Shown piece by piece: positions 33,549 through 63,161 of a stretch of DNA of 64,000 nucleotides. The position numbers and the translations under genes are program-made. The stretch is taken from positions 1,364,001-1,428,000 of the forward strand of contig CM030337.1 in NCBI GenBank assembly GCA_017654855.1, read 5' to 3'. The notes below the pieces were generated by a model. It was given only the letters and a program-made list of their open reading frames with translations. It had not been told where the DNA came from and did no database searches. Position 1 is the first letter of the stretch. Each line of letters starts with the position of its first letter. Source of the stretch: Podospora anserina (Eukaryota).

Positions 33549-33919
33549 TGTGACGAACCCCTGTACAGAACCTCTGAAAGGGATACGGGTTGAAGGTAAC
33601 TTCTGATAATTAGTTTGGTGTAGTTAAATAGTGCATAATAAGATATCTTAATGTAAATATAAGATACCGTGAATATAATTGTGAATTATATACTGCGGAA
33701 CTATCTATCTATATTAGCTAGTTCCTCCGTATATATAGATTTATTTATTACTATTATTATTAATAATAATATCGATTATTATTCGTCGTTTATTAAAGGC
33801 TAATAATAATCGTGATTATTACTTTTAGCGCTAATAATAATCTGACTTCCCTACTTTTTTGTTTTTAATGGTTAGACGGGTCGCGCCCCGCGTTCCCTAC
33901 TTATATTAGGTCCGTAATA
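33549..33919 (-). repeat. 3' LTR of element A (same U3 type as element B LTRs)
   Basis: Starts TGTGACGAACCCC, ends RIP-altered CCGTAATA; reverse complement of 36438-36805 and 60117-60484. Confidence 0.85.
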
Positions 33920-38300: not shown

Positions 38301-41300
38301 TATTAATGTGTGGGTACTACTAAGTGCCCTACTTACTGCCCTACAGATTAATATTACAGTGGGCAGTACTGCTATAAGCAGTAATGGAACTTCCCGGCTT
38401 GGATCCCTTTAGAATGTTCTTTACAAGGGACCCTTAAAGGCTTACAGGGCTACTGTGGCCTGAGGCTTAGTTAATGGATACTAGAACCTTCTAAAGTGGC
38501 TACAGGCTTACGTAGTAAGTTGCCACAATAGTGTAATTTACAGGGCACCTCTGCTGCCGAAAGTTCTATGGATTTCCGTGAGTCTACACTAGACCTACCT
38601 AAGCCCACTAAATACCCCAAAGTGGTATAGGGGCTTCCAGGGCCTACAGGACCCACAGTAGGCTTACGAAGGCCTATATATAAACCTCTCCTCTCTCCTA
38701 TAAAATAGTTTTCTTTCTTTCCTTAAGGGCAAAAGCTTAAGGCTAAGGCCAAAGGCCAAAGCCAAGGGTAATAAAGGCAATTCTTATTCCTTATACCTCA
38801 CTGTATCACAGTGCTTTACCTTCCTTCGGCACTGCCGTCGTATCCTCCCGCTTCCGCTTGCGCACTGCTGTATTTTACAGTAACCCTATATAGGTTCTAT
38901 ATTATAGGCCTATTAGGGCTTACTAGCTAATAGGTTATGAGCCCGGGCAACCACCTAGCCCGGAATCTAGCCTACTTATGCGCTTCCAGTCGACGTACCT
39001 ACAGCATTATACTACAGGCTGTACGGCTTCTTACTAAGAAGCCTTTTCCAGTAGAATTAGCGCTGTACTATAGGCTTTACTACTGCTGTGATTATAACCC
39101 TGGCCAATACTTTTAGGCTAATTTATAGCACTGTACTACAGGCTATATAGCTTCTTACTAAGAAGCTTCTTTAGTGGAATTAGTGCTGTACTATAGACTT
39201 TCTACTGTTATAACTATAACCTTAGGCCAATACCTTCAGGCTAATCGTCGATTTACAGCACTATACTATAGGCTGTACGGCTTCCGAGAAGCCTACTTAC
39301 TAACCTATACGGTTATTTTCTACTAAGTCCTCGCTTTTACTATAGCTAACTAGCCTATAGATTAAAACTACTTAGGTATTATAAAGGCTACTAGCCCTAT
39401 GGTACAGGCCTTATCGGCCCGTATCGACACTATTAAGGACAGGCTTCGGCAGGTTATATTACTGTTTAAAGTTTAGGCTACTAAATAGCTAGTAGCTGTA
39501 CCGGCCACCCACACTACCGAGCCTCCCGTGGCTCTAGCTGCTTCAGTACCTTCAGTACCTATTATAGAGCCTTTTATAGCGACCTTTAGTACACTTATTA
39601 TAAAAGAGCTCGCTAAATAGTCCCTGAACCTCGCTAAATAATAGCGCTTTTTAGGACCCGATAATTATTAATAGTGGCACTAGGCTATTTCTATATAATT
39701 TAGGGCCTTTAGAATACCTGAATTTCTAGAAAATCCTAATTCGGTAAACGCCCGGCTTTCCGACCCACAGAAAGCAGCCCTGCTATTGACCCTCAGAAAT
39801 ATACTAAAGGAAGGCCCGTTATCCACTATAGCCTTCGAAACCGACCCCGTTGTGGCCTATAAGCGCCTTCGCTCACAGTACGCTCCGGCGCAGCCTACCC
39901 TCCGAGACGAGCTATATAAGGCCTACCACTACTTGCAATTCAATAGGTCTATACCTATCGTAGATTTTAACGCCCAATTTAATACCTACGTAAGTAGGCT
40001 CGGGGCCTTAAGCGTTGAAATAGCCTAAATCGACTAACTAAACTACTATTTTAACGTACTGGAAAACCATTTTCCACAGTAGGCCGAGCGCTGTAAAGGC
40101 CTACTTCGGTAAGAGTAATAGCTCTACTATATAGAAGGCAAGCTTATTAGGCTAAGCCTTTTGTATTTCCAGGAAGACTTTTTAGCCGAAACCCGTAATT
40201 CGGTTACTTCCACTGCCCACTAATTACAAGCCCTATAGGTTACCTATAAGCCTATTAATAGCGAAAAGAAGCTTAACTTTTAGGCTTCTTAAGCTTACCG
40301 GTCCTTACTAAATAAGGACTAAAAGCCCTATAAAAAATAGGGCAATAAGTAGTAGAAGAAAGGCTTGAAAAAGGACGACCGCTATAACGACCGTTATAAC
40401 GGCCGTAAAGACGGCCGTAAGCATAGTCGTAAAGACGACCGTAAGGACTAAAAGGACTTACCCGCTACCGAGGCTTTTACTATAGGCTACGACCTTAACT
40501 TAGGCACTGTATTTGGAAGTAATATAATTGAAGAATATAGCGACTTAGGGCCTAATCCTCCCGAAGAACTAGCTAAATTTAGCCACTTAACCGCTACACT
40601 ACGTACCCAGTGGCTCTTCGATACAAGCTCTACAGTGCATATCTGTAACAATAAAGCCTTATTTACCAACCTACAGTTTTCTTCTTCCCTGAGCTGTGTT
40701 GGTACAGGCGGTGGCCCAGTCAAGCTACAAGGCAAAGGCACTATAGAAGTTAAATTCTTTAGTGGTTTTAAGGGCAAAAAAGCGGTATATACTACTGTAG
40801 CCCTTAAGGAGACCCTCTATATTCTAGACTTTCTACTAAATATAGTTAGTAGTTATAGGTTCTACGCCTCCGGTGGGACCCTTCTTAAGGACCGCCTATA
40901 TTCAGCTTCCAGGAAGCTACTGGCCCTCCTTAACTTCAAGAAAAATAAGTTCTTTTTTACTACTAAAACCACGGTTCCAGCTAAAATAGAGCATTTAACG
41001 CTACAAGCATACGGCTCTATTTGGTGCTACAGCACTGAAGACAGCGATTTAGACCCTGAATTAACTACCATTACGCCTGAATTTCTAGCTACCATAGCGC
41101 TTACCATAGCGCCTACTACAGTGCTTACTATAGCGCCTACTATAGCGCTTACTATAGCGCTTACTATAGTGCTTACTACAGCGCTTACTATAGCGCTTAC
41201 CACAGCGCTTACCATAGCGCCTACTATAGTGCCTACTACAGCGCCTACTATAGCGCCTATCATAGCGCCTAAACCAACTACCACTACGGCGCCTACCCCT

Positions 41301-43827
41301 CGCCGTATAAAGCATTCGCCCTACCAACGTAACTAAGTGTTAATTTAGGCTGCAAGACTCTGGCACGTTCGATTAGGCTATATAGGCCTAGACCTTCTGA
41401 AGAAAACTGCCCTAATTACTAAGGGTATACCCAATTTATAGAAGGTATAGCCTACAGATCTGACCTGTAAGAGCTGTGACGTAACTAAATTACTGCGTAA
41501 ACCTTTTAAAAGGCCTGTAACGGACCTACCGTATACGCTGAGTCGAATAGAAGGGGATATATTTGTAATTCGACCCACCCTACTAAACAGCAGGCCTTAC
41601 GGGCTTATTTTAGTGGACCGTAAAACTCGGTACAAGCTTGTTAGGCTCCTAAAAACTAAGGACGAAGTCGCTATAGAGGCTCGCTCCGCTATAGAGAGCC
41701 TATATAATACTTATAAGCGTCACCCGGCATAATTCTACTACGACGGGGGCAAGGAAATTCGAAAGCTACTGCCCTACCTTACTGAAAAAGGTATAACCTT
41801 TAGTGAGTTTAGCCTATACGCCCACCACCAAAACGGCCTAGCCGAGCGCTCTATTCGGGTAATTTTAGAGCGTTTATAAATTACTATAGTAGCTTCTGGC
41901 CTACTATTTACCCTCTAGTGCTACGTAATTAGCTCTATTATAAATATTATTAACCGTATAGCTACTTCCACTAAGGAATTTACGCCCCACTAGTTATTTC
42001 TTAACGAATTGGTGCCCTTACAGGCCCCTCACGTCCCGGACCTCGGACCTTATAGGGCTATAGGCGCTAAAGTTCTAGTATTTATACCGCCTAAAAAACG
42101 TATTACCGTAAAGAAGCTAGAGCCTAAAGCTACTAAAAGTAAGCTTCTAGCCGTACTAAGTAATAATACTTACTTAGTGTGGCTAGGCCACCGGTAAGTA
42201 ATTTAAACGCTATTCGTTAAACTATATAAAGATTATAGGCTTTATTTAGAAGGACCTATAGTCTCCATATCGTAACTAAGGCTTCTAGAACTGGAAGATA
42301 TTAAGCTTTTAGAAAGGGAACCCCTTATAATTACAGAAGGGGCACTTACTGCAACAGCACCTCCTAGACCTATACTTACGGTAATAGTACTTCTAAAGCT
42401 TACTAATATCGAAGTACTATTTCCGTAAGCTACTAAGCTACAGAAGAAGGAATTCGAAGTGGTAAATAACGATACTATAGATACTACTGCTCTAGTAAAT
42501 TATTTTATTAACCAGGCTACTACAGCTATTACTTACAGCACTACTTCTATTAGCACAGAACCTAGGACCTTTAAACAGGCCCTGAAGCACCCACTAAAGG
42601 ACCAGTAGCTACAGGCTTCCTTTAGTGAACTATAGCAGCTACTGAATTCCAAAACCTTTTACTTTATTAACCGCTCTCAGGCTCCAAAAAGGCCTATTAC
42701 TAACCGATGGGTCTATAAGGCTAAAAAGGACTTATAGGGCTAAATTATTAAATTTAAGGCCCGGCTAGTAGTTAGAGGCTTCTAATAGGTATCCGGAACC
42801 GATTTCACGAAGACCTTTATAGCTACTACGGTACTACCTACCTAGCGGGTTTTACTAGCTATTGCAGCTGAAGAAGACTTAGAAATTAAGTAAATTGATT
42901 TTGTTAGGGCCTTTCTTAACGCTAGTGTGGACTCCGATATATATATGGAAGTCCCTAAAGGCCTATACGAATATAGCCTTAGTAGCTAAACCGCTATAGA
43001 CTTTCTAAAATAATACTGTTAGGACCCTTCGAAGGACTAAGTTATAGTACTAAAAAGGTCCCTATACGGCCTAATAAAGGCCCTACCAGCACCTAAATTC
43101 TAGCGCTTTTTAGAGCTGATGAATTACCGGAAGCCTAGTACTTATAAGGGCCCTACGGCCTAGTAAGTGGGCACCTAATACTCCCACAGAAGGGGTGTTA
43201 ATGTGTGGGTACTACTAAGTGCTTTACTTACTGCCCTACAGATTAATATTACAGTGGGCAGTACTACTATAAGTAGTAATAGAACTTCCCGGCTTAAATC
43301 CCTTTAAAATATTCTTTACAAAGGACCCTTGAAGGCTTATAGAGCTACTGTGGCCTAAGGCTTAGTCAATAGATACTAGAACCTTCTAAAGTGGCTATAG
43401 GCTTACGTAGTAAGTTGCTACAATAGTGTGATTTACAGGGCACCTCTGCTGCCGAAGGTTTTATAAATTTCCGTGAGTCTACACTAGACCCACCTAAGCC
43501 CACCAAATACCCCAAAGTGGTATAGGGGCTTCCAGGGCCTACAGGACCCACAGTAGGCTTACGAAGGCCTATATATAGACCTCTCCTCTCTCCTGTAGAA
43601 TAGTTTTCTTTCTTTCCTTAAGGGCAAAAGCTTAAGGCTAAGGCCAAAGGCTAAGGCCAAGGGTAATAAAGGCAATTCTTATTCCTTATACCTCACTGTA
43701 TCACAGTGCTTTACCTTCCTTCGGCACTGCCGTCGTATCCTCCCGCTTCCGCTTGCGCACTGCTGTATTTTACAGCAACCCTGTATAGGTTCTATATTAT
43801 AGGCCTATCAGGGCTTACCAGCTAACA
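38301..43827 (+). mobile_element. Element C: Ty1/Copia retrotransposon, RIP-mutated, with internal RT/RNase H deletion
   Basis: 632-bp LTRs 38301-38932 and 43196-43827; TSD TAAAT (38296-38300, 43828-43832); PBS GGTTATGAGCCC 38933-38944; PR WLFDTSSTVHIC; LWHVRLG; IN QNGLAER before RT (KFKARLVVRGF, LKRSLYGL); PPT AGAAGGGG. Confidence 0.92.
41089..41270 (+). repeat. 12-bp coding minisatellite (~15 units, ACYAYAGCGCYT) in the copia PR-IN linker
   Basis: Translates as TIAL/TIAP/TTAP repeats in ORF 40635..41336. Confidence 0.85.
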
Positions 43828-44025: not shown

Positions 44026-44388
44026 TGAAATGGTGAGAAAACACACAAAACAACCACAACACCACAAATATACCCTCAACAGGTCTCAGAATGAACACAC
44101 CTGCGTGACAGTGACTCGCTCGCAGGCCGCACTTCACGTAGGACAAAGAAAAGACACTATGGGCTCGCAGGCCACATAATAAGCACCGGATTGGCCTGAT
44201 CAGAGGGCCAGAATTGCCTGCACGCGTGCAAGGCACAAAATACGAAGCAAAGAATAAAAGTCGATGTCCTGTCTAAAATAGAATGTCCGAAGCAGACCGC
44301 TTATATACATGACCCCTGAACCCCTGAGTCCTCTGAGAGCCCCGCTTCCTTACTCATACTCTCAGGCCTGTGGCCGCACCCCAAACCA
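44026..44388 (-). repeat. 3' LTR of element D
   Basis: Direct repeat of 55538-55900; preceded on the minus strand by PPT GAAGGGAGG (44391-44399). Confidence 0.95.
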
Positions 44389-44905
44389 AACCTCCCTTCG
44401 CATTTGACCACTACAAACCAGTGGGCAAATGCGTACACAAGAAAAAAATCCCTTACAAACCAAAAAAAAAAAAAAAAGAAAATATCGTTCAGCAGAAAGA
44501 AGGAAAACGATGTAATCCTGCTATCCCTTTATCCATTCTCCCTTGATCAGAGAGAAGAGCACCCTCACTTCTCGGATCTCAGAGCATACCTCCGTCCCTG
44601 TCGAGCCATCACAACTGGTGACCTAACGACCTCCTCCCTTCGTCTCTGAGGAACTCCAGGAGCCCACTCCCATCCCATGAAACCAGGTGTGTGATCAGGC
44701 GAAAGGTGTGTTGTTGGCGATCCTGAGTGGTCATAAGTAGGGGACGGGCAATTACAGGCCCAGAGAGGAGCGGCGAGTCCATTGTCACAGGAGTGCGGAA
44801 CCCAAAGGGGTTGCTACCCTGCTTGGTCGTTGAGAGTTGCTCGACACGCTACTTGGTCCAAACCCTTCATGATCAGAGGGAAGACCCACGACGCACTCAT
44901 CTCCC

Positions 44906-46087
44906 TCAACAGTAGTAACCAAAGCTAACGGAGAACCAGGGAGGGAAGCAAACCGGGGGAATTGGTGGAGACTTGAAAGGAGACGAGAGGGTGCTTGGCA
45001 GGTTGAATCCTTCCGCGTCCATCAAGTCCTCCAGGCCCCTCCTCCTCCATTTCTTATCACGCACCCTCTGATCAGGCTCACAACCCAAAGACCTTTTCAC
45101 ATAAGCCATCCACAACCTCATCATCTTCTTCCCCGCAACGCCCACGGTCTTGCAGTCTCTGTAGCAACGATCTCCTCTCCAAGCCTTTACTACCGTTAAA
45201 TCCTCCTCTTCACCGTACGAAACACCTCCCTGAAAGTAGGTACGGCAGTGCTCCAAGACCCAAAGACCACATTCCCACGCCCCGCCCTGTTCACCGCAAG
45301 CTGGCCTCCTCACTTTCACGTCAAGGCTGCAGTGGAAAGCGTGACGGATGTAAGATACCAGGCAAGAAATAGCATTAGCTTGATACCCCTTCCAATCCTT
45401 CGACGAGTCCATATAAACCAAAATGCCAGTAGCAACGTCGTAGATGCCCACTGCCCAGTGGCTTCCGTTGTTGACATGAATGGGGAGGACCCAGTATCGT
45501 CGGTCAAAGGCGTTGTGGTTGTCGTTAGGCAGGAAAAAGCGCATCGACGACTTCATCATAACAGGGTTCAGAGGCTCTCCAGGGATCCATATACAACGCT
45601 CGAGGATTCCCTGAAGAGAGTACCGAAGAGCGCAGGTAAGGACCGAGCTAGTGAGCCACTGCTTGGCCTCTAGTTGACCTTGAAGGTCATACATAGCGCA
45701 AGTGAGGGAAGCTACATGGATACCGTAGATGTGAGTCCGATCAGGGGGGGTCGTTATTCTCAAGCCAGGAAAAAGATATTTGATAGTGTCAATCGAAAAC
45801 TGCTCCACGAAAGTGGTGTTGATCCAGTCGGGCCGCCTTCCCACAACATAATCTCCTGGGTCGGCAACCAGGTTAAGGCCAAAACGAACAGGCCAGAGAG
45901 TGTCATCGCCTTGGGGAAGGAAGATGCCGCGCGGGGGACCAGAGCCATAGACCCTGTCGATACCTTGAAGGCGCGCTTTCCGAATAATCTCTTTAACGAG
46001 ATCATTGGGAGGGCCGAATTTCTTGGTGGCGGTGAATTCTTCCCATGACATGTCGTGAATGGACTTTGTAAAAAGCGTTGATGACAT
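44906..46087 (-). CDS. Ulp1/SENP-like cysteine protease (peptidase C48) encoded inside element D
   Basis: WLTSSVL, WVLPIHVNNGSHWAVGIYD (His), VYMDSS (Asp), EQGGAWECGLWVL (oxyanion Gln + catalytic Cys); 393-aa open frame, 3' end may be extended by splicing. Confidence 0.8.
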   Translation of the reverse strand: MSSTLFTKSIHDMSWEEFTATKKFGPPNDLVKEIIRKARLQGIDRVYGSGPPRGIFLPQGDDTLWPVRFGLNLVADPGDYVVGRRPDWINTTFVEQFSIDTIKYLFPGLRITTPPDRTHIYGIHVASLTCAMYDLQGQLEAKQWLTSSVLTCALRYSLQGILERCIWIPGEPLNPVMMKSSMRFFLPNDNHNAFDRRYWVLPIHVNNGSHWAVGIYDVATGILVYMDSSKDWKGYQANAISCLVSYIRHAFHCSLDVKVRRPACGEQGGAWECGLWVLEHCRTYFQGGVSYGEEEDLTVVKAWRGDRCYRDCKTVGVAGKKMMRLWMAYVKRSLGCEPDQRVRDKKWRRRGLEDLMDAEGFNLPSTLSSPFKSPPIPPVCFPPWFSVSFGYYC

Positions 46088-46352
46088 CGTTCTGTGAGAA
46101 TTGAGAGGGAGTAGTGTGTGGTGTGATCTGTGATCAGAGGGTTGTCGAGAGGGAAGTGAGGAATTTTTTTTGGAATGGAGAGTTAAAGAGGGAAGAAGGT
46201 CTTCGGTGAGTCTTTGTTCTCTGTTGTCTGCCTGGCTTGTAAGGCAAGATCATCAGATAGTTGCGTAAGCCGTTTGAGGAGGAAAGAGCGCTCTGATGAG
46301 TCTCCCTCCTGTAGAGGTCTGTAGGACCAGTCGCACCGTCCTATCCTCTGGT

Positions 46353-46360
46353 TATAAATA
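46353..46360 (+). promoter_or_regulatory. TATA box (TATAAATA) in the 342-bp spacer between the divergent accessory genes
   Basis: Canonical TATA 70 bp upstream of ATG 46430, followed by a CT-rich leader. Confidence 0.55.
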
Positions 46361-46429
46361 CCCATGCCAGTTCTCCTCATTCCCGCTCACTCCTCATCTT
46401 TTTCAGTACTTATTAACCGCTTCCTCCCA

Positions 46430-47500
46430 ATGGCCTCTTCTTTGAGGAAACCTGCTGCTTCGTCCGATCAGGCGGTCGACGACCTTACTACCCAGGTATC
46501 CACGACCTCTTTCGCCAAAAAACTTCCCAGTCAGGTCGAGGGAGTCCTTGACCTTACTGCGTACGACTGGTCCGAGGTCGCCATAGACCCTACTCAAGAG
46601 CCTTTGCTTGCTACCCTCACTCATCGTCCCACCGACCTCACCCGTGCTCCCAACAATCAAGGCGTTGCTTACAAGAGGCACGTCTGGGTTCGGCGTCCTA
46701 CTTGCGTTCACGACTCCACCATGCCCAAAGGTGCTAATGCTTATCACGACATTTCTCTCCCCCATCAGGCTGCTCTTTGGTACCTCAAGATTTCCCCTCT
46801 AGATCCCAAACACGTGGCTGCTCCCCTCTACCTTGAGTGGTTCCTCCCTGATCCGACGAAGAAGGGGGGTAAGAAAGAGTGGCAGCTACTTTTCAAGGAC
46901 ATTGGTGCGGACAAGACTATCACTGATTACATCTCCAAGGCGTTGTCGACCGGTTCCGTTAGGCGGATTTTCGTCGAACGGTCCAATGGGTGGTTCTTCG
47001 GGCGCTGGCTCTTCGAAATCGTCAAGCGGGCTCATCGCTCTAAAGGCTTATTTGTCCAGGCCACCGGGTTACTGTAAGTGCCGCCCCCCTGATCAGACTT
47101 AGCCTGACACTAACATGTTGGATTCAGTCATGCCAATCCATGTGATAAGTGCGATCAGAGCTATCGCCGGTCTTTCGTGACGTTCCCCGATGGGACCAAA
47201 ACTAAGGTGATGTGGCCATACTTCGGTTGTGTGGGAAGAGAGGACCTCGATTGGAAATGCGGGAACTGCTGGCATAAGGGTATCCATTACTCATGGTCCA
47301 GTGTTGATGAGGACAGCCCTTACTTCAAGGATCTTGGTAGTGGTGGGTTATCGAAGTTGGATCGTGGTGCCGTGAGCTTGATTCCTGGTGGTAAGGAAGT
47401 CGATTGGGACCAGGAGTGGGAAGAACAGCGGGCTGAGTACAAAGAGCTTAGGAAACAGCAGATGGATAAGAAGAAGGAGAAGAAGAAAGAAAAAGAATAG
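46430..47500 (+). CDS. Spliced antisense accessory gene of element D, 338 aa, Cys-rich DUF3716-like putative Zn/DNA-binding domain and basic tail (exons 46430-47073, 47128-47500)
   Basis: 54-nt intron GTAAGT...ACTAAC...CAG joins the two ORFs in frame: FVQATGLLHANPCDKC...WPYFGCV...KCGNCWHKG. Confidence 0.72.
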
Positions 47501-47748
47501 TCTTCCACTTCCTCAGATCAGAGGAAGGGGCATAAAGAGAGGAGTAAATCGGAAAAAAAAATAACAGGAAAAGAAAAAAAAAAAATTAAAAATTCAATGC
47601 GATAATCTTCACCCCAATCAATCACCTCCCTTAATGTCTTTCCTCCCTTTAAGAACAGACAGCTCCCACAGCTCTGTTCTCACAACACAAGCTTCAGTAC
47701 CCTCTTAAAGAAAAACAACAACTACAACGCCTTCGTCATCGTCTCCCC

Positions 47749-50700
47749 CTAATCACCCAAGAAGTCCTCTGGTCTACCCTTCTTCAGGACCACCTCTATA
47801 CTTTTGCCCTTCTCAAATCTCTTCTGCACCTCAGCATTCTTCCGTTCCATCCAAGTCTTCCCCCTGGTCATCATTCTCCCTGGTGTTTCTTCCACTATCT
47901 CTTCTTCTTCATCCTCATCTTCCACCATATCCACGCCTTCCTTCACTCCATTCCCAGGCACCTGCTCAACTCTCCCTAGTCCTGGCTGCATGTCCGTATC
48001 CTCTTCATCTACATACACGTCTTCCAACCTAAAAAACTTCTTTACCCTGTTTAGCGTATAAGAAGCTCGCAATGGCACCCCATCCAGTGTCTCCAGGAAG
48101 TAGCAAGTGTTGCCTGGTTCGACCTTCCTCACTCTGAAAGGGCCGTCCCAGCGGTACTGTAGCTTCCTTACCACACTCATATCCAACTTTCTATCCATTT
48201 TATACACCAACACCAAGTCCCCCCTTCTGATCATGCTATTCTCAGGCCTAATGCTGCGAATCCCTTTTCTGTTCTTTCTTGCCGCGGCTTTCTGTCTTGC
48301 CATACCAACCCTCTCAGCCACCAGAGTCAGATTCATCTCCTGGGATTTCAATAGTCTCGCCCTTGCCTCTATTAAATCCATAGTCGCTCTCTCCTTCCAG
48401 TGTCTCCCTGATCTGTCGAAGCCAATCTTTTCCCACTGGACGACTCTCCATAACGGTACGTCCTTTTCGATCGGCGTAATGGGGTTAAACCCATGTGCCA
48501 GATAGAAAGCACTGTACCCATAAATACCTCGTGTCGTGGTCCTATCAACAAACAACACATAAGGGAGCCACTGCTTCCACTTCTTCCCCGTCCCATCCGT
48601 CATTTTTGCCAGCATCGATGCAATTGGGATGTGACCAGACTCCGTCACTCCATTTGCTCTTGCGTTGTAAGGTGAGACCACCACCCGAAGAACTCCTAGC
48701 CTCTCTAAAATCTCAGCAGCTTCCTTCCTAAATTCTGATCCGCCGTCCACCACCACGATCAGAGGGTGACCCCATCTAAGGATGATATCGTGCAGGATAA
48801 AGTTCTCAACCCCAGAAGCCTTGCCTGAGCTCAAGACCTTCGCTTCTGGATACCCAGTCAAGTCATCCCTCGCTTCCAGAAGGTAGGCTTTTTCTCCCGA
48901 AGCCGTTGGTAAGAACTGAACGTCTAAATGCCACTTCGCAAATGGAGTAGCTAAAGGCTCAGTATATAAGTGCCAGTCCTCCCAACGCTTCGGGCTCCAT
49001 TGTTGACATTGCCTACATGTCTTGATCCAAGCCTCGACGTCAGCGTACATACCCTTCCAGTAGTAGTTTTCTACTACTCGGGCATAGGTAGCTTCCCGTC
49101 CTTTGTGGCCCATCTCGTTGTGACACGCATTGAAGACTCTTTCCCGCTCGATCAGAGGGTCAACAATTCTCCTAGGGGGAAAGCCTCCTTTATTTAGCTT
49201 AAGAAACAAAACTCCGTCTTCGAGAATCATTTTCAGGGCGTCATTCTTAATGGTCTGAACGTCAAACCTCGTCTTAGCCCTTGGCTCCGCACCAGTCGCG
49301 AGGAACTCGGCGATAGCATGGGAGTAAGGAGACCACAGTCCATTCAAGTAGGGGCCTTGCCCAATAACTTCCTTTTTCTTCTTCCTGATATTCACCCGCC
49401 AGACACTTACTTCCTGGATATCGTTCTTCCAGATCCTTGCGTCAACCTCATCATCAATGTCTGGCTCTAACTCCTTCTCCCTCAGATCAGAGGGGCCAGG
49501 TGGCTTTCTCGATAGTGCGTCTGCCACAAGGTTCTTACTCCCAGGGATGTGAACAATTGTGAAGTCGAAAAGTCTAATCCATCCCAGCCATCTCATCATC
49601 AAGGCGCCGGGAACGTCACTAGCCGCCCCCTGGACTTGGTGGACTACCACTTGAGCGTCCGTTTCCACCGTAAAGTATACCCCGAAAAGATACCTTCTAA
49701 ATCTCCTCAAAGTATACAACAGTCCTCTCAACTCCCTCTTGGTGGCATCATACCTCTGTTCAGCCGGGCTCCAAATACCACTCTCAAACCGACAAGGGTA
49801 CCGTTTTCCATCAGGTCCTACTTATTCAATCACCGCTCCCCACCCCGTCAAGCTTGCATCAAAAATAACAAAGATTCTACCGAAACGGTCGTCATCAAAC
49901 GTCAGAGAAGCCAGACACGGTGCCTCTATAATCAAAAAGGCAAGCCACTCCATCGCACCCTGTTAAGCTTCCGTCCATTCCCATCTCGTGTCCTTCCTCA
50001 TCAAGAAATACAGCGGAACTGCAATCAGATTGAAGAGAGGTACCCATAGCCGATAGTAACCGGTGATCCCCAGGAAGGCGCGAACATCCTTAAGACTGTG
50101 GCAAGTTCGCCATTCCCTTATCTTCACTATCTTTGTCTGATCAGGGAGGCGCCCGTCCGGTGTACAGGAATAGCCAAGGATAACAGCTTCCCGTCTGCAC
50201 CAAAGGGATTTCACGGCTGCAATTGTGGCTCCTGCAAGCTCACAGTTAAGCAAGACTGCGTCGATATTCTTCAAGTGCTCCAGGACCCACTTCCTAACTC
50301 CTGGCCTTTCTTCTTCACCATTGTAGTCCCACCTTGGCCCTTTCACTGCGATATCGTCCAGGTATGGCCGACACACCTGTGGGATAAGATCTTGAAAGAC
50401 TCTGGTCACGGCTCTTTGGAACTGGGCCACTGAGTTGGTAGCTCCTTGAGGTAGGGTACACATCCTGAATAGGCCGATAGGTGTCGCGAAGGTAGTGAGG
50501 TCTCGGCTCGTCAGGGCTAATTTGACTTAGTCGTATCCGGAGAAGAAGTCAAGCAAGGAGGTAATAAGGCACCCTGCAAAGTCCTCGCTGAACTCCTCAG
50601 TGCTTGGTGGGATAAAGGCATCTCGTTGCGTAACCTTATTGTATCTCTGGGCATCGTTGATCAGACGGAGGCCACCATCCTTTTTCTTTACTAGGAACCA

Positions 50701-53700
50701 GTTATTGCGGTAGGGACCATGCGCTTCCTCAATAATATTTCTCTTGATTCGTTCCCTAAGGAGATCGATGACTTTCCCCACGAGTGGCTTCGGGATCGGA
50801 ATAGACTTGCTTTGCCACGCTTTGTGAGGGATAGTCCTAATATGTTGAGCAGGGAAGACTTCTTCAAGGATCTGTCCACACTCGGTGAAGTCCCATGCCA
50901 GTGCAGCCTCCCTTGCGAATAAGATTGCCGTAAACACTTTAACCTCCTGATCTATCAAAATGTCGGTGGTTTGTCTGATCAGATCGGCTAAGCGTTCTGG
51001 AGTGAGGCGTGACCCTCTAATCATTTCAGAAAACTTAGGGACCACAATATCGTCGAATTCTGAGCCGTATTGTAGGGATTCCTTAACTGCCGCCCATCTC
51101 CTTACTTTCCAGTTCGGATCTCCTTCAGGAGTGCTACCATCTGACCCAGCATTATCAACCGGCTTCACCTTCTTATCTACCCTCTTGTACATCGTAGCAG
51201 TAGTAACAATATCCGCAGGCGTTGGCCAGGCCTGTTCAAAAGTAGTGATCAGGCTGGTCTTCATATTGTTTTTCTTCTCAGAAGGGGGCGGAGGTGGATG
51301 ACGTCTATGTGGTTGTGTAGTGAAGAGGCTGCGCTAACCTGGTTGAGTGAGGGACCAGTTAAATATCCCCAAGCATAAGGATGCCATATCGGGCTTAAAT
51401 GGGGTTATCCTGCTAGTCCTCTGATCAGACGGCGGCGATGTCTTTAGCAGTGGTGGCGACGGTACTAAATGCAGACCTGTTATGAAGGTCGGTGGTGGCG
51501 GTCGTTCTTTCCCTGAGATTTCGTCCGAAGTTAGAGTTCTTGTCGTAATTTCCACTCTTCCAGGCTGAAACAAAGACTTCTCTTTCTGGCAGTCCCTTAT
51601 ACCTCCCTTCTTTCCTTCCCTCTGATCACTAATATTCTTTCCTCCCTTGCTCCTAACATCCCCCTTTTCTTTGTTTTTATAAGAAATAATATCAGACGCC
51701 AGGCAATAATTTAATAACGGCAAACTTGACTCCCCCAAAATAAAATTAAGCAAAGAACGCCCAGCTCCTTCATTCAGTCCCCCAATCACTTCATCCCCTT
51801 CCTCCAGCTCCTCCGTTACCCACTCAGGGACAGGTACTCCTTCATTAACCAATCCCTTAAACACCTGTAAGGGTCAGCTGGCAGGAGAGGCATTACCTCG
51901 ATCCCTGCCGTTATATTCCGCCTTCATCTTATCAATCACCTCCTTTTTTACCACGTGGGCCTTAATCAGCTTTCCCCCATACAACATATTCGCGCTAATC
52001 ATACAGCCCTTCATAAAATCAAGGGTGAGGCTCGTATCCGTGAAGAACGGGATGCCCAATAGCAGGTCATGGAAACCCAGAGCCTCAGTGTTATCAATAA
52101 CGAAGAAATAACACAAAATTGGAACCCCAGCCAGCACTACTGGAGCCTGAGTCTCACCTATAAACGCAACCGGATCTCCATGAAGGCCTTTAGACTGTAG
52201 GTTCGTCGACACCATCGGTAGACAGAACCTCTCAGCTACAGCCCTACTGATCAGGTTGCACTCCGAGCCTGTGTCCAACATTGCCAGCACCTTCTCTGAA
52301 GTTGGTGAGACGAAGTTACAATATAGCGATGGGACGTTATGGGTTCGAGTGACGGCTCCCAGGAGAGTTCGCTCACTACCGGAAAGCCGGCCAATGGGCG
52401 TAGACAGCAGAGTCCGCAATCGCTCTTCTGGGCTGTCACCCGGTTGGACCTTGCCTTCGATGATCTTCTCCCAGATGCCTCCCTCGACCACACCATACTC
52501 ACCATCCGCCGTAATCCCGTACAAAGCAGGGACAGTCTTCCTCTGATCAGACGGAGGAGTCTTACTGTGTCCAGCCGTCTGAAAATTCGTCCGAACCGTT
52601 AACGGCAAGGCCTCCCCCTTCTGTGGGACTTCTCTCTTTCCATCCGGGGTACTCTTGGAAGATCCACGCCACTCGATCACCTCAGCATCCTCGGCCACAC
52701 TCTTCACGTAATCCATCAACCGGTAAACAAATGTGGGTGAAACCCTACAATGCTCTTCCAGTGTGAACTTAGTCTGACCACAGGCGTACTTTTTGGCTTT
52801 CTCGGCAATATAATCCCCAGAGTCCTCTGCCTCACCATCAGGCAACCTTGAGCCACTCCGGACTCCATCCCCCTGATCGGACGAGACTCCCTCCTCAACT
52901 ACCTTTGGCTTCTCTTACGCGGGGGTGAGTACCACTTTCGGATTTTCGGCTGAGGCTGGGTCATCCATATCCTCTTTCGGCAGATCCTCGATCCTTACTC
53001 TCTTCGCTCCTTGCGCGCCTACCCCCACTTCCACCTCTTGGTTGCAGACGACCACTGGGGCATCATCAGAGCGCTTCAGAATGCTCCTAGGCGACCACTT
53101 CTCTGCTGAGCAACGTTGCAAGGCATTCCTAGTAATGTAGTCACTGGCTGAGTTCTCGTTAAACGGTACGTAGGGTTTGGAGTACCCATGAAGCCTGTTT
53201 AACCTAACATCCATAGCCCTGGCCATCTGAGTAGCTGTCTGCTCCCTCCCTCTGATCAGAGAGACCTCGGGCCTATATCCCTTGCCCTCACGAGCTTCCC
53301 AGTGCTCAGCCCATTTCGTGTAAGCTTCATAGGCCCTATTCAGTTCTGGTTTCAACGAAATTGCAGCACGAACCAGGTCGCCAACCTTCCCTTCACGCTG
53401 CGCCTTCCTCACATCCTCTTGATCAAGCCACGCTTTTTCACTCTCCGGCCACTCCTTCTTACCGATACACACTCTGCCTCCTTCAGTATAGCACAGTCCC
53501 CACGCCTCATCATACTCCTTCTTCGGACACTCCGTCGACTTAGCGTAATGGCCAGTCTTGCCGCACCAGAAGCACCTTCTTAGTGGGGGAGGGCTATCGC
53601 GGTACTGCCCCCCTAATCTTCCGAACTGGGTTTTAGTATCAACAATGGGGAAGGTATTAAAAGACGAATCCATTTCCCCATTAGGGCCAATGCCAAAATC

Positions 53701-54957
53701 CAGGGAGTAAGGTGCCTGGTCTTCTAGGTGTTGAACGCGGGTCCTCATTATCCCAGATTTGCCGTTTCCCGGTGCAGAGAAACCACCGTAGATATTCGCC
53801 CTCAAATGCTGCAGTGCCATCTCTCTGTCTACCATAGCGTTAACCGCCATATACTGGTCGAGCACCTCGGCCGCCTGATCAGAGGCAGCAGGGGAGGGTG
53901 CAATGGTTGATTTGTCCTCCTTGTAGATTCTTCCTCCCACGTCATACCCATCTTCGATCACATCATTAATCCAATCGCTCCAGGTAATAAAATTCATGGA
54001 TCTTAAACGACGTTCGGATCCTCCTCGGTTGATAAGGGTCATCCTCATTAACTCGGAGAATTTCATCCAAAAGCGGCTGGCAACCCTGGCTCTTACTGCC
54101 TCTTTCTCCCCGGTCGGCACTCGAGAGAGCAGTTTAGAGTGGTCAAAAACAACCTTCCTTAACTCGCCCACACCTTCAGGGATAACCTTGGCGTAGAAGT
54201 CATCCAACTCCCTGTGGATATCTTCGTCTTGTCGGGGGTCATAGATCTTAAAGAGGCGTTTAAGGCGGACAACCAGGACAGGCCAAGTATCGGTGGGTGT
54301 AGGTAGGTCTACACATTCGTCAATCTGTTTTCCCACATCGAAGTCACACCAGGATTTGAACTTGCGAACGCGAGAGGTAAATTCCACGACATGGTACTCT
54401 TCACAGGCATTCTCGAAACGCTCCAGATATTCCGTAAAGTGCTTCCCTTTGAAGTTGCTCTTAAAACCGACTTTCTTCGGATCAGGGAATTCACGCTGAG
54501 GAAAATACATAGGCACCATGGGATAGGGGGTTGGATGATCAGACGTAGGGGACCCCTGGAAGTGGCGATAGTCGGGGTAAGCTCCTATGGGATATGGGTA
54601 TCCGGGTTGCTGGAATTGATGCGCGAACCCAGGAAGAGGAGCGGGATATCCGGCATGCCGAGTGGGAGGCGCAGTATGATTCCAAGCAGCAGGATTTGGG
54701 TGGGTACGAGGTCCACCTGGCACGTCAGGAGCGTTGGGCCTTGCAGTCGGGCCACCTTGATCAGAAAGGGGGCGAGGGGTCTCAGCATCTTCAGGGTGAG
54801 CGCGGTTCGCAGCCGGGGAGAGGACGAATGGTGATGATTCCGGGGACCTGGCCGCCGGAATGGCCACTTCTACCACGGAACGAGCCGTAGGAGCTTGATA
54901 CCCCTGGTTGTCGCCGGGAAGGCTAGCCGAAGCGATGGGTGGGACATTGTCGGACAT
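47749..54957 (-). pseudogene. gag-pol of element D: one reading frame (~2400 codons) with six in-frame stops
   Basis: Zn knuckle CFWCGKTGH...C; PR MLDTGS; RT LDFFSGYD, LPQG, YLDD; RH FDAS, ETDA, ADALSR; IN H..H..CRQC, HLD, VDGG, NGVTE, WDGPF; no chromodomain; all consecutive ORFs share one frame. Confidence 0.88.
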
Positions 54958-55518
54958 GTCGATACTCGATGATTGCTGTTGCGTTTGCGTTGGTGGTATG
55001 GCTTTTTCCTTGTGTATGTTGTTGGAAATATGAAGACGGTTGTCCCTTGCAACTCCAGTATGTGGGCATGAGTTACATCTACCCAGATCAGAGGGAAAGT
55101 GTCCTCGTCTCCTTGCTTTTGGGTTCCCGATGTCCTGAGTCAAACTGACCCGGAAATCCCCACGATTGTCCACCATCGCTAAACAACACACCAGGAGGAT
55201 TCCTCCTAACCAAAGATAGGAGAGGACTTTGATAGTTGACGCGGAGATAAGGTCCACTAACGAGCTAGTCTCAACCAATGCTCTTAGTTCACTTCCCGGT
55301 CCCATCCGGACCACACACTTGACTCTCCACTCGCGGGCAGAAAGTTTAGAGTTTGGTCGATGATGAAAGAGCTTTATCCGATCAGACGGAGAAGAATCGT
55401 TTCCGTTGAACCTCGCGGGGTTCAGTGAAGTTGTCGGTGCTTGTTGTCGTTCGTGGCTTCGCACTTCCTCCAGTACCCAGGGCTTGTGAGTCCAGTTTGG
55501 ACCCTGAGCTTTGCTCAA

Positions 55519-55535
55519 CCCGGGCACGACCTCCA
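55519..55535 (-). promoter_or_regulatory. Primer-binding site of element D, complementary to a tRNA 3' end (tRNA-Gln-like)
   Basis: Minus strand TGGAGGTCGTGCCCGGG begins 2 nt after the 5' LTR; complement CCCGGGCACGACCT-CCA. Confidence 0.75.
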
Positions 55536-55537
55536 TT

Positions 55538-55900
55538 TGAAATGGTGAGAAAACACACAAAACAACCACAACACCACAAATATACCCTCAACAGGTCTCA
55601 GAATGAACACACCTGCGTGACAGTGACTCGCTCGCAGGCCGCACTTCACGTAGGACAAAGAAAAGACACTATGGGCTCGCAGGCCACATAATAAGCACCG
55701 GATTGGCCTGATCAGAGGGCCAGAATTGCCTGCACGCGTGCAAGGCACAAAATACGAAGCAAAGAATAAAAGTCGATGTCCTGTCTAAAATAGAATGTCC
55801 GAAGCAGACCGCTTATATACATGACCCCTGAACCCCTGAGTCCTCTGAGAGCCCCGCTTCCTTACTCATACTCTCAGGCCTGTGGCCGCACCCCAAACCA
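55538..55900 (-). repeat. 5' LTR of element D
   Basis: Direct repeat of 44026-44388; TATATAA on the minus strand ~55813-55819. Confidence 0.95.
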
Positions 55901-58900
55901 ATAGAGTAAAGTATAGGATAAATACCCTCTACGGTATTACTATAAGGAACCTAAAAAGTAATAGTATATTTTATTAATATAGGTAGTAAGATCGAAGAAG
56001 TAGGGTTAATAACGTTAATAGAGATATCGGAGGTTAATAAATATATTTATTATAATAATATAAAGAAAAGCGAGAAAAAAGCGGTACCGGTAAAATATTA
56101 AAGATATTTAACTTTTACGGTTAAATATTTAAAGGGACTTTTAGAGCGAGGACCGTAAAACTATAAAATTAAATTAAAAAAAGGAATTAAGTTACGGCTA
56201 TTTAAAATTTATTATACTAATAATAAATAAAGTAAAGAATTATAAAAATATTTAAATAAAAATTTAAAGAAAAGATATATTAAGGAATCTATATTACTAG
56301 TAAAATACCTTATATTTTTTATACCGAAGAAAAACGGTAATTTATAATTATATATAGATTATTATTAATTAAATAACGAAACGGTAAAAAATAGTTATTT
56401 ATTACCGTTAATATTTAAATTACGGAGTTAATTAATAGGAGCGTAATACTTTATATATTTAAATATATTTATCGGATACGTTTATATATAAATTAAGAAA
56501 GGAAATAAATAAAAAATAGCGTTTTATATATTTTATAATTATTTTAAGTATCTCGTAATACTATTCGGGCTAATTAATATACCTATAACGTTCTAATCTC
56601 TCGTTAATTATATAATCCGGAAATACTTTAATAAAATAGTAATATACTATTTTAATAACGTTTTTATTTATTTATATACTTTAAAAAAGTATAAGCGATA
56701 CGTATAAAAGATACTTAATACACTATACAGAGCCAGACTTTTAATTAATAAAGAGAAAAGTAAGTTTTATATATAAAAAATAATATATTTAAAATATTTA
56801 ATATTATTAAAAGAGGTTCGTATAAAACTTAAGAAAATTACGGTAGTTAAGGATTAATTTATACTATAATTATAGATATATATTAAAGAATTTTTAAAGT
56901 TTATAAATTTCTACCGGATATTTATTCGAGGGTATATAGGTATTACGTAATTATTTAATTATTTAATTAAAAAGGATGTAGAGTTCCGGTAAGAGTAGGA
57001 AGAAAAGTAGGCCTTTTAGGAGCTAAAAGAAATTATTTTAAAGGACTTAGTATTTAAATTATTAAACTTTAATCGACTATTTAAAGTCGAGGCGGATATA
57101 TTAGACTATACGATCGGTGGACAATTAGGGTAGCGAGACGACGACGGTAAGCTATACCCGGTAGCCTTCTTTTCGAAGAAGCTCGAAGGGGTACGTTAAA
57201 ACTATTTAATTTATAATAAAAAGTTATTTACTATTATTAAAATATTCGAGGAATAAAGGTTATACTTTAATAATATTAAATATAAAATATAGGTTTATAT
57301 AGATTATAAGAATTTACGGTACTTTATTATTACGAAGGTCTTTAACGTATAGTAAATACGATAGTTAGAGTTTTTTTCGGAATTTAATTTTTAAATTAAT
57401 TATAAAAAGGGTTCGGAAAATATTAAAATAAATATATTTAATTAGCGGGCCGATTACTATAAAAATATATTTAGGGAGTTACTATTATTATTTAAGGAAG
57501 CGCTAAACGGTATTTTTAAGTATTTACTATAGTTATAAATAAAGTATTATATAATATATTATAAAAAAGTTATTTCTAATAAATATTAAAGGAAGTTAAG
57601 TAACGATATTACGGAATAATATTAATAGGAAAAGTTAAAGCTATAAAGTATTTAAAAAAAATAATTAGGGAAGATTATAATATAAAAGTCGAGCGTATAT
57701 AATACTAGGTAATAGAATAATATTAATAATAGAGATTTACGGATCGAAGTTCGGAGGATATATAGGTATCGTAAAGATTATAGAAAAAATTAAGTAGTAT
57801 TTTAATTAACTAAGGATTAAAAATAACGTTAAGGAAATTTTTTAATTATATTATATATACGAAAAAACAAGGGTTACGAAGTATAAGCTTTATAGATTTC
57901 TAAAGTTATTATTAATAGTAAAATAATTATAAAGTTTAATTATGATATATTTTATTATTAAATTATTAAAGTTTAAAAATATAGTAATTAACGTTAAGTA
58001 TAATAATATATTAATAGTAATTAATAAGTTTATTAAATAAATATACTTTTTACTTTATAAAGAGATTTAGTTAGTAAAGTAATTAACGGATATAGTATTA
58101 TAGTATATTATATTAATATATATATAATTAAAAGAATTTATTACGGACCGCGATATTAAATTCGTATTAAAGTTTTAAAGAACGTTAATAACGAGGCTAA
58201 GGGTAATAAGTAAAGCGTTTTCGGTTTATTATTTTTAGACGGACGGTTAAACGGAACGGTTTAATTAAATTATAAAATAATATTTACGGAATTATATTAA
58301 TTTCGAGTAGGATAATTAAGTTAAATTATTATTTATAATATAATTAATATATAATATATTATTAATTAAAACGATTAAAATTATATTATTTTTCGTAAAT
58401 TTTAAATATAAAATAAATTTATAATAGGGACCTAGCGTTAAAGTACTTAGGGCTAAAGTTAAAATAAATAAATTATATATATTTTACGGTAAATTTAAAT
58501 AAAAACTAAAGTTTATAAGGGAAAAGATACAGAAATATTATAATACTAAAAAGCTTAAGGGATCTTACTTTAAGGGGGGGGATATAATATTCTTTTTTAT
58601 ATATAATTTACGTATTAAAAAACTTAATAAGAAGCTAGACTATAGGAAAGTAAGTTTATTTAAGGTTAAAAGGAAGATCTTAAAAACGGTATTTAAATTA
58701 AAGCTACCTACTACGATACGTTTACGGTTATATACATTTTATATCTTACTTTTAAAACCTATATTATTAGTAAATAAAATTAATATATAAATAGTGGCGG
58801 AGAACGAAAAAAAAGAGTATGATATAGAAAAGATATTGGATTTACGGTTTAATAAAGGTTAATTAAAGTATTTAGTTAGTTAGTTAAAATATCCGGTTAT

Positions 58901-62760: not shown

Positions 62761-63161
62761 TGTGACGAACCCCTGTACAGAACCTCTGAAAGGGATACTA
62801 GTTGAAGGTAACTTCTGACAATTGGTTCGGTGCAGCTAAATAGTGCACAACAAGATGTCTCAATCACAACAGCTAAGATACCACGATTGTGACTTGTCAT
62901 TGCATACTGCGGAACTGTCTATCTACACCAGCCAGTTCCTCCGTATATATAGACCTTGGGACCGTGGACCGTTGACTTACAGACGGTCCTCGGTCCACTC
63001 CTGATTGGCCGATACTGGACCGTGGACCGTGAGCCCCGCCGCGGTCCCCGGTCCCCATCTTATTGGTCCGTTCCGTCCACTCGGACCGTGAGCCCCGCTC
63101 GATCGCTCGGTCCAGTCCTGATTGGTCCCTCGTGGCCCCACTGTCTTCCAGAACCGTGACA
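62761..63161 (-). repeat. 5' LTR of element A; largely un-RIPed, different U3 subfamily
   Basis: TGTGACG...CCGTGACA; 62761-62955 matches the other LTRs, 62956-63161 is unrelated and GC-rich. Confidence 0.88.

Follow-up and report, generated by a model that had tools for sequence, protein, structure and literature searches.

A spliced DUF3716-like gene antisense to gag-pol in a Ty3/Gypsy retrotransposon of Podospora anserina, a putative accessory gene of its lineage

Within a 64,000-nucleotide stretch of Podospora anserina DNA (the window, whose positions are used throughout), an 11.9-kb Ty3/Gypsy retrotransposon with the minus strand as its sense strand carries on the plus strand a two-exon gene for a predicted 338-aa protein (338 codons plus stop). 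The original prediction held that two separately called ORFs were the exons of one spliced gene, and this is confirmed by homologs that span the junction and by the conservation of the intron site. We judge the DUF3716-like gene, from these comparisons, to be a genuine accessory gene of a fungal Ty3/Gypsy lineage. The best explanation as a whole, to which we give a probability of roughly 0.8, is an antisense accessory gene with an internal promoter, encoding a nuclear zinc/nucleic-acid protein and represented here by a copy damaged by RIP.

The host element is bounded by a 5' LTR at 55538..55901 (minus strand, 364 nt), which is 100% identical to the 3' LTR at 44026..44389 (minus strand). The LTRs end in TG..CA and are flanked on both sides by ATAG; TGG begins 2 nt past the 5' LTR. 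On the sense strand of the element, the 3' LTR is preceded by a purine tract at 44390-44401. Pfam domains for gag (CCHC), protease, RT, RNase H and integrase follow one another in Ty3/Gypsy order at 47752..55587 on the minus strand. By its LTRs, target duplication, PBS/PPT and domain order the element is a Ty3/Gypsy LTR retrotransposon. The plus-strand gene lies between the LTRs and in opposite orientation to gag-pol, which bears out its predicted position antisense inside a retroelement. It is placed between the integrase and a second additional reading frame, a sense-strand ORF resembling Ulp1/C48 cysteine proteases at 44909..46249 (minus strand; first Met at 46087), from which it is divergently oriented. 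The Ulp1-like ORF scores 18.5 bits against PF02902, below the cut-off of 20.7. The whole element, including the antisense gene, is also present in other strains, on contigs about 11.5 kb long (4/4 runs); these are the contigs of four of the 24 other sequencing runs listed, and they are without joints and have DNA-like coverage of the whole stretch.

Exon 1 (46430..47073, plus strand, 644 nt) starts with the ATG at 46430 and consists of 214 codons and 2 further nt, encoding a disordered N-terminal part and an alpha/beta domain without a Pfam family. A 54-nt, phase-2, spliceosomal intron follows at 47074..47127 (plus strand), with the donor GTAAGT at 47074-47079, a CAG acceptor ending at 47127 and, as read from the sequence, the branch motif CTAAC at 47110-47114. 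The donor itself forms the TAA at 47075-47077, which is why the exon-1 ORF ends there. Exon 2 (47128..47500, plus strand, 373 nt) then continues in frame to the stop TAG at 47498-47500, and its product reads P-C-x2-C ... W-P-[FY]-F-x-C ... C-G-N-C ... [C], followed by a conserved QR..Y motif and by a tail rich in Lys. The junction peptide given in the original prediction, QATGLL-HAN-PCDKC, matches the spliced reading, and the Lys-rich tail that it described is found in the product as KKKEKKKEKE. This Lys/Glu-rich C-terminal stretch (47450..47497, plus strand) lies within a long helix predicted by AF2 and has counterparts in the basic tails of homologs; it is a possible NLS or nucleic-acid contact. 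Upstream, a TATAAATA box can be read at 46353..46360 (plus strand), about 70 nt 5' of the ATG. The first ATGs of the two divergent ORFs, at 46087 (minus strand) and 46430 (plus strand), are 343 nt apart, and the box falls within this interval. This TATA box may serve the antisense gene as an internal promoter.

The evidence for splicing comes from the homologs. A phmmer search with the window protein returned 33 proteins at E<=1e-3, nine of which align across the junction, with a 341-aa hypothetical protein from Cladorrhinum sp. as the closest match (E 4.7e-15). In the alignments the 18 residues coded by the intron lie opposite a gap in all full-length homologs, and AF2 gives these residues a pLDDT <50. 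Against a family profile built from 11 full-length homologs, the window protein being excluded, the spliced product scores 137.5 bits in a single continuous match, whereas the read-through scores 122.0 bits in a match broken in two at the junction. An intron at the identical site and phase is found in two metagenome homologs, L006 (50 nt) and L008 (53 nt), and three further homologs (L003, L004 and L007) are intronless, with a distance of 18 nt from the conserved Gly to the first Cys that equals that of the spliced window product. Among 13 ORFs covering exon 1 only, 11 end exactly two residues past this Gly, as is expected if a same-phase donor of the GTAAGT type supplies the stop. Other assemblies contain an ORF (P0003) that is 99% identical to exon 1, and another (P0005) is a degraded copy of exon 2 with 82% identity. 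Prokaryote-style ORF calling cuts such genes at the intron, and they are therefore obscured in large protein collections.

The likeness to DUF3716 held through the homologs, while the window protein taken by itself stays below the threshold. DUF3716 (PF12511) is the sole Pfam family listed for the window protein, with scores below the gathering cut-off of 22 bits (7.7 for exon 2, 10.9 for the ORF from 47114 and 9.3 for the read-through). Among the homologs, 11/32 match the family at E<=0.01 and 6/32 reach the cut-off, which is also reached by L003 (35.8), L004 (30.3) and L007 (23.2). The window protein is thus assigned, by transitive homology, to a divergent branch of DUF3716. The named homologs belong to the Sordariales genera Cladorrhinum and Parachaetomium (2 proteins), which fits the fungal distribution of DUF3716. 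The family pattern, C-x2-C ... F-x-C ... C-x-N-C ... C, was compared here with the alignment of the homologs. As had been anticipated, their cysteines are conserved, with six columns being Cys throughout (18/18, 17/17, 20/20, 19/19, 19/19 and 19/19, counting the homologs that have a residue at the column). The window copy keeps five of the six, spaced C-x2-C-x25-C-x9-C-x2-C-x6-[C]. The Zn2Cys6 binuclear cluster of fungi has the spacing C-x2-C-x6-C-x5-12-C-x2-C-x6-8-C; this candidate was rejected, as the spacing differs and Pfam Zn_clus is unmatched even at E<=10. The six-Cys cluster of the family would bind zinc, an idea that draws on the conservation of all six Cys, and the protein would act on nucleic acid inside the nucleus.

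The missing sixth Cys was predicted to lie at 47288..47290 (plus strand), where the window reads TAC (Tyr269 of the spliced protein). The contigs of all four other runs read TGC here, with G at 47289, so that the predicted residue is present in the other copies. The change is, as had been proposed, a G>A change of RIP type in TpA context, with the same polarity as two stops in pol. The pol frame of the window copy is interrupted by in-frame stops, at least two of which are G>A relative to other copies, these having G at 47751 and 49965 and thereby reading CAG and CAA. At 25 of the 32 sites with A in the window and G in other copies the preceding base is T, against a background of 16%. The comparison between copies thus identifies that of the window as damaged by RIP-type G>A changes, which account for the change of the sixth Cys to Tyr and for stops in pol, and the protein of this copy, with its sixth Cys missing, may be inactive.

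AF2 predicts a product with a disordered N-terminus, one compact domain ending in the Cys cluster and a basic helical tail. The model of the core is confident (pLDDT 83.9, pTM 0.80) and packs an alpha/beta region of about 130 residues, which lies outside Pfam coverage, together with the Cys cluster as one domain. A prediction of the L003 protein as a homodimer gave no answer (score 0.00); here the alignment was unused and the fold is uncertain. Searches for a known relative of the fold were negative within their scope: Foldseek against the PDB left both the whole and the core model without a match at E<=0.001, and none of the PDB sequences matched in a profile search at E<=1. The wide VIA-align search reached at best Z 4.6 with the whole model, on the tail helix alone, and Z 3.5 with the core, for which 14 chains had Z>=2. 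With no solved structure like the model, DNA binding has no fold-based backing. Among sequence collections, a word-index search with exon 1 returned only the 99%-identical ORF and searches with alignments returned 4 and 8 proteins; the ESM Atlas gave noise-level scores only for exon 1 and P0039 (0.84 and 0.79), and a scan of viral_contigs found no relative.

A diverged metagenome element (L001/L002/L003, hereafter L003) has the layout of the window element, with gag-PR and RT-RH-INT on the minus strand, then a DUF3716 ORF on the plus strand and then a C48 ORF on the minus strand. Its DUF3716 ORF has no ATG ahead of residue 76. Identity between the two elements is 55-57% for RT, 40% for INT, about 30% for the DUF3716-like gene and 25% for the Ulp1-like ORF. 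The two Ulp1-like ORFs match one another with E 8e-18, their HW, D and Q..W.CG motifs align, and the L003 counterpart scores 33.8 bits against PF02902. Other homologs lie in different surroundings. No retroelement domains were detected in the flanking ORFs scanned at L004, L005, L006, L007 and L008, those of L005 and L006 being without Pfam match and L004, L007 and L008 being short loci; L009 is a weak partial match only. Hence not every member of the gene family is carried by an element. In a different reading of the gene, it is a passenger without a role in the life cycle of the element, either a host DUF3716 gene captured once by transduction or one around which the element inserted. The loci without a detected retroelement domain favour such an origin, as do the annotation of the Cladorrhinum and Parachaetomium homologs as single hypothetical proteins and the conserved spliceosomal intron, which is typical of cellular genes. 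Against it, position and orientation are common to two elements with merely 55-57% identity in RT, and the divergence of the gene is in step with that of the other accessory ORF. In L003, moreover, the pol, gag-PR, DUF3716 and C48 ORFs are all uninterrupted, and the window gene bears the palindrome that is found across the element, even in its intron. We consider a mere passenger unlikely on balance; an ancient capture followed by retention would fit the accessory-gene explanation too.

It could also be supposed that the antisense unit matters as RNA, for example by forming dsRNA with the genomic RNA and so leading to silencing or self-regulation, and that the protein is incidental. Antisense transcripts with a putative regulatory function have been discussed for LTR retrotransposons (PMC7264820). 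An RNA role alone would not keep the features that mark a conserved protein, that is the invariant Cys columns, the profile match of 137.5 bits, the pTM of 0.80 and an ORF open in both elements, and we regard it as very improbable. That chance ORFs and an intron-like spacer on a non-coding strand only imitate a gene, as the Pfam score of the window protein below the cut-off might suggest, is refuted in practice by the homology, intron-site and profile results, given 33 homologs of which nine cross the junction, a conserved intron site with intronless homologs that fit the spliced spacing exactly, and a family-predicted residue found in other copies.

For an accessory gene, the course of expression would be as follows. 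The plus-strand gene would be transcribed from the internal promoter, with its TATA box at 46353, and the mRNA would then be spliced. The 54-nt intron is antisense to the genomic RNA of the element, so that the template of reverse transcription cannot lose it by splicing, which explains its survival through retrotransposition. The product would then bind zinc through its six-Cys cluster and work in the nucleus on nucleic acid, and in the most specific version of the proposal it would recognise a palindrome present throughout the element.

This palindrome, the 10-bp TCTGATCAGA, occurs at regular spacing across the window element, roughly every 175 bp, and is found in coding sequence (in all three phases), in the LTRs and in the intron; it also studs the L003 element. 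About 175 bp corresponds to one nucleosome repeat. The palindrome CTGATCAG is present once in the intron, at 47089-47096. GATCAG has a density of 3.96 per kb in the window element against 0.35 per kb outside it, and of 6.8 per kb in L003. RIP was considered as the cause of the lower density in the window element and rejected, as a motif is lost at just one of the 32 G>A sites. The enrichment is absent at the five homolog loci L004 to L008. In the literature, a search with the palindrome brought up unrelated primer sequences only. The link between gene and motif is correlative, for it involves two elements and there are homolog loci free of the motif. That the antisense protein recognises TCTGATCAGA is accordingly put forward as a tentative proposal, which we hold to be less likely than not.

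Additional antisense genes are known from plant LTR retrotransposons as aORF-3R genes (Grande gene23, RIRE2, Retand and PvRetro13), which lie between pol and the 3' LTR and are present across copies, with an own promoter shown for Grande and with some products nuclear (PMC7264820). The same account describes their products as being without clear similarity to known proteins (PMC7264820). The window gene shares this position and the antisense orientation and is present in 4/4 other runs and in a related element; it differs from what is described for the plant genes in being fungal, in its DUF3716 relationship, in its conserved spliceosomal intron and in its pairing with a sense-strand Ulp1-like ORF. 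We regard it, from its sequence and setting, as a fungal variant of the antisense additional ORFs already described in LTR retrotransposons.

Among fungi, Zhao et al. are said to have described in 2011 (Virology 417:248) an antisense gene, brtn, in Boty-like Ty3/Gypsy elements of Botrytis cinerea. By description, brtn and the window gene are both additional antisense genes of fungal Ty3/Gypsy elements. The Boty-like gag-pol is described with a chromodomain, and the parts of these sources at hand make no mention of Ulp1 (PMC8365987, PMC4227169, PMC7264820); in the two supplementary files of PMC8365987, DUF3716, brtn, Ulp1 and C48 are all absent. DUF3716 is itself found in a mobile element, REP9 of Zymoseptoria tritici, a class II transposon of IS3EU type which is reported to have four genes, two of them (REP9-1 and REP9-2) with DUF3716 (PMC8232023). 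As described, REP9 resembles the window element as a fungal mobile element with DUF3716 proteins as non-transposase genes; unlike it, REP9 is a DNA transposon, so no antisense logic applies.

A connection of the family to DNA binding is provided by the Neurospora protein NCU05718, which is reported to bind double-stranded TTAGGG repeats directly (PMC4650311) and is stated to be the ortholog of the Fusarium graminearum DUF3716 protein PSC58 (PMC10776026). The Cys pattern is common to PSC58/DUF3716 and the window subfamily, and the DUF3716 link of NCU05718 is one of stated orthology only. The window subfamily differs from Pfam DUF3716 by the added alpha/beta region of about 130 residues upstream. 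As to the second extra ORF, Ulp1 (C48) domains are described in Ginger1 and Mutator-like DNA transposons, where they are fused to the transposase or lie beside it (PMC2836005). An Ulp1-type domain is shared with these transposons as they are described there. That of the window element, however, has an ORF to itself, placed downstream of pol, and the element is an LTR retrotransposon; of such an arrangement titles and abstract openings yielded no report.

Extra genes in LTR retrotransposons seldom gain recognition, and hardly any of them is understood. DUF3716 is a named, uncharacterised fungal family which the literature places in a DNA transposon and links to a direct DNA binder. A conserved antisense gene in two elements, its pairing with an Ulp1-like ORF, the regularly spaced palindromes and a compact domain without a solved structural relative together lead to a testable hypothesis of DNA or chromatin management by a retroelement. 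In its fullest form, which we think rather unlikely as it stands, the lineage might encode its own chromatin-reading module, in which the DUF3716 protein would bind TCTGATCAGA and, together with an Ulp1-like SUMO protease, would set or protect the state of the chromatin or the cDNA. If true, this would be a self-encoded system of sites and reader extending across an entire retrotransposon.

Between 46430 and 47500 of the window two ORFs are found on the plus strand, the first of which runs from an ATG at 46430 to a TAA at 47075-47077 that belongs to a GTAAGT splice donor starting at 47074. The further plus-strand signals are a CTAAC branch motif at 47110-47114 and a CAG end at 47127, and with these 54 nt removed codon 215 (CT + T) is joined to the second ORF, giving a spliced product of 338 aa that reads QATGLL-HAN-PCDKC at the junction. 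The coordinates of the original prediction were all found to be correct. The ATG at 46430 is the start that matches the N-termini of homologs (MA.., MS..) in the alignment, and the in-frame upstream ATG at 46364 is unlikely to be part of the mRNA because it abuts the TATAAATA box (46353-46360) lying directly 5' of it.

The gene with its intron read through and X at its four stops (P0004) was used as a query against 1.84 billion representative proteins and gave 33 matches at E<=1e-3. Nine of these run across the exon junction, the top one being a hypothetical protein of 341 aa from a Cladorrhinum sp. (P0006, E 4.7e-15), while 13 are exon-1-only ORFs, including one 99% identical to exon 1 (P0003), and seven are exon-2-only ORFs. 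All but two of the 13 exon-1-only ORFs (11/13) end exactly two residues past the conserved Gly of ..LFVQxxG.., as expected if the ORF caller meets a GTAA/GTGA donor whose phase is that of the window donor. In the alignments the 18 intron-coded residues lie opposite a gap in all full-length homologs. Against a profile of 11 full-length homologs, from which the window sequence was excluded, the spliced product scores 137.5 bits as a single match over profile positions 20-261, whereas the read-through product reaches 122.0 bits and its match is split in two at positions 140/143. Among metagenome loci with homologs, L006 and L008 carry introns of 50 nt and 53 nt at the site and in the phase of the window intron, with GTAAGG and GTAATG donors, respectively, and a CTGAC branch motif in each; L003 (identical to L001 and L002), L004 and L007 are intronless, and their Gly-to-first-Cys distance of 18 nt is exactly that of the spliced window product. 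The junction-spanning homologs, the profile scores and the conserved intron site thus lend comparative support to the gene and its splice, and the claim that a 54-nt intron joins the two ORFs stands.

The only Pfam family returned for the window protein is DUF3716, with scores of 7.7-10.9 bits where the cut-off is 22. A DUF3716 match at E<=0.01 occurs in 11 of 32 homologs and six of the 32 pass the cut-off, with a top score of 36.1 bits; the ORFs of L003, L004 and L007 score 35.8, 30.3 and 23.2 bits. Conservation of the Cys residues had been named as a check, and all six columns are invariant, no residue other than Cys being found among the homologs aligned there. The proposed likeness to DUF3716 is therefore upheld through the Cys columns and the homologs that pass the cut-off, but not by the protein's own Pfam score; transitive homology makes the window protein a divergent branch of DUF3716, although taken alone it falls below the Pfam threshold. 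AF2 models, made with 34-35 aligned sequences, had a mean pLDDT of 73.1 for the whole read-through and a pLDDT of 83.9 with a pTM of 0.80 for the core only (P0004 residues 82-300); within them confidence is weak only in the insert coded by the intron, and they place the exon-1 alpha/beta region and the Cys cluster in a single, compact predicted domain. Foldseek found no solved structure resembling these models at E<=0.001, the best Z for the core in VIA-align was 3.5 with Z>=2 in only 14 of 48,161 chains, and PDB sequences searched with a profile yielded no match. The modelled fold consequently gives no functional lead, and the absence of a solved relative would be no proof of a new fold.

The host is a minus-strand Ty3/Gypsy element with LTRs at 44026-44389 and 55538-55901, which have TG..CA ends and are flanked on both sides by ATAG; the 3' LTR is preceded by a purine tract, and a TGG lies 2 nt past the 5' LTR. 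On the minus strand are found gag (CCHC), protease, RT, RNase H and integrase, with the end of pol near 47722-47751, followed by the antisense gene, convergent with pol, and then a sense-strand Ulp1/C48-like cysteine-protease ORF (46249-44909, minus strand, first Met 46087). This Met and the antisense ATG are divergently oriented and 343 nt apart, so that a bidirectional internal promoter is conceivable. The related element at L003, a 13.2-kb metagenome locus found as identical copies in two other samples (L001 and L002), has four uninterrupted ORFs, namely gag-PR (1076 codons) and RT-RH-INT (1349 codons) on the minus strand, a DUF3716 ORF on the plus strand (2477-3343, 289 codons) and a C48 ORF on the minus strand (242-1927, 562 codons), together with a partial LTR repeat (1-127 and 11919-12045). 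Compared with the window element, that of L003 is 55-57% identical in RT, 40% in INT, 25% in the Ulp1-like ORF and ~30% in the DUF3716 gene. The C48 score is 18.5 bits in the window against 33.8 bits in L003, and the His, Asp and Gln..Cys motifs of the two ORFs line up. The stop-to-stop frame of the L003 DUF3716 ORF has no ATG before residue 76; translation may really begin in an upstream exon or at a codon other than ATG. The Ulp1-like ORF has 447 codons in the window against 562 in L003. At five homopolymers (G2-G5, T8; 44501, 44739, 44806, 44955 and 46164) the window differs in length by a single base from the contigs of all four other sequencing runs compared, and the four differences below 45000 alter the C-terminal end of this ORF; they may be either real slippage or assembly error.

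Contigs of the four runs were compared with the window over 44400-50000, the whole element being contained in contigs of ~11.5 kb. In three of the runs (X1, X4 and X8) there are 32 A>G sites relative to the window, against 2 C>T, 1 G>A and 1 T>C. One A>G site is 47289, where the window has TAC (Tyr) and the others TGC (Cys), so that the sixth Cys predicted at 47288-47290 is present in other copies. T precedes 25 of the 32 A>G sites, as against 16% of the region's A's overall, a context that reads as the CpA>TpA RIP signature seen from the opposite strand, and the other copies lack two pol stops of the same polarity (47751, TAG/CAG; 49965, TAA/CAA); the contigs thus agree with the expected RIP-type TGC>TAC change sharing its polarity with the pol stops. 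Further changes in the gene, all non-synonymous, are T43A, I164V, K/E at 47147 (within PCDKC) and K/E at 47393, and three of the four runs have a C>T at 47129. The window copy is lightly RIP-mutated and probably dead. Its 364-nt LTRs are still identical; RIP can miss short repeats. Gag-pol (47749-55587, minus strand) is a single frame broken by in-frame stops at 52915 (TAA), 51874 (TGA), 51334 (TAG), 50527 (TAA), 49963 and 47749, of which the last two are G>A relative to other copies; the first four lie beyond the compared 44400-50000 and are all compatible with C>T at the first codon base.

The 11.9-kb element contains 47 occurrences of GATCAG, at 36 sites, and the remaining 52 kb of the window 18; at L003 the counts are 89 (63 sites) within the element and none in the last 1.1 kb of the locus. 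The flanks of the motif widen it to the consensus TCTGATCAGA, a 10-bp palindrome that is 10-20x denser within the elements (window 44026-55901; L003 1-12050) than outside and that is not enriched at loci L004-L009. Each of the three codon phases is represented among the sites, which also lie in the LTRs, non-coding DNA and the antisense-gene intron. Gaps in L003 have a median of 178 bp and a CV of 0.53 against 0.98 for random placement, a regularity that no shuffle out of 5000 equalled; in the window element the CV is 0.55, matched by 1 of 5000 shuffles, and the gaps group near 150-200, 290-390 and 520-710 bp, multiples of ~175 bp. This spacing is about one nucleosome repeat. The palindrome is a feature of the element lineage at the level of DNA or RNA. 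That the DUF3716-like protein reads it is a doubtful proposal, with which the co-occurrence of palindrome and gene in two of two elements agrees. An outside lead is the Neurospora protein NCU05718, which is described as binding double-stranded TTAGGG repeats directly (PMC4650311) and is said to be the ortholog of a DUF3716 protein (PMC10776026).

The element lies in a nest of degraded AT-rich repeats (32000-62900) where GC falls to 0.19-0.31. Here are found a ~600-nt repeat in three copies (near 35026, 38303 and 43198), a 12-nt tandem repeat (unit like TACTATAGCGCT, ~20 copies, 41054-41305) within a plus-strand ORF (40452-41336) in an AT-poor island, and repeat pairs (33549-33739 and 62761-62953; 79-89% identical, 29.2 kb apart) that may mark the termini of a larger, older element.

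A fungal precedent for such an arrangement is reportedly brtn, an antisense gene of Boty-like elements. Plant LTR elements carry additional ORFs, antisense and placed between pol and the 3' LTR (PMC7264820), the REP9 transposon of Zymoseptoria carries DUF3716 genes (PMC8232023) and Ulp1 domains occur in Ginger1 and Mutator transposons (PMC2836005). DUF3716 is mentioned in 2 papers of the literature searched, and none of the papers found there on Ulp1 or C48 and LTR retrotransposons reports, in its title or abstract, such a domain in a Ty3/Gypsy element; subscription papers, Repbase reports or supplements may hold such a report.

Retroelement domains were not found at the homolog loci L004, L005, L006, L007 and L008, so the family is not confined to this Ty3/Gypsy element type. 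The weakest metagenome match, of 31 residues at 68% identity (L009 8-3054), has genes for a glycosyl hydrolase 32 and a TPMT-like methyltransferase next to it, an ordinary gene neighbourhood and not a retroelement. We put the probability of a real, element-borne DUF3716-family gene at 0.8 or above, and it is most likely an antisense spliced accessory gene encoded by the element for a predicted zinc-cluster nuclear protein. That both accessory genes have been kept in place and orientation despite the divergence of the elements is an argument that they serve the element and are not recent passengers.
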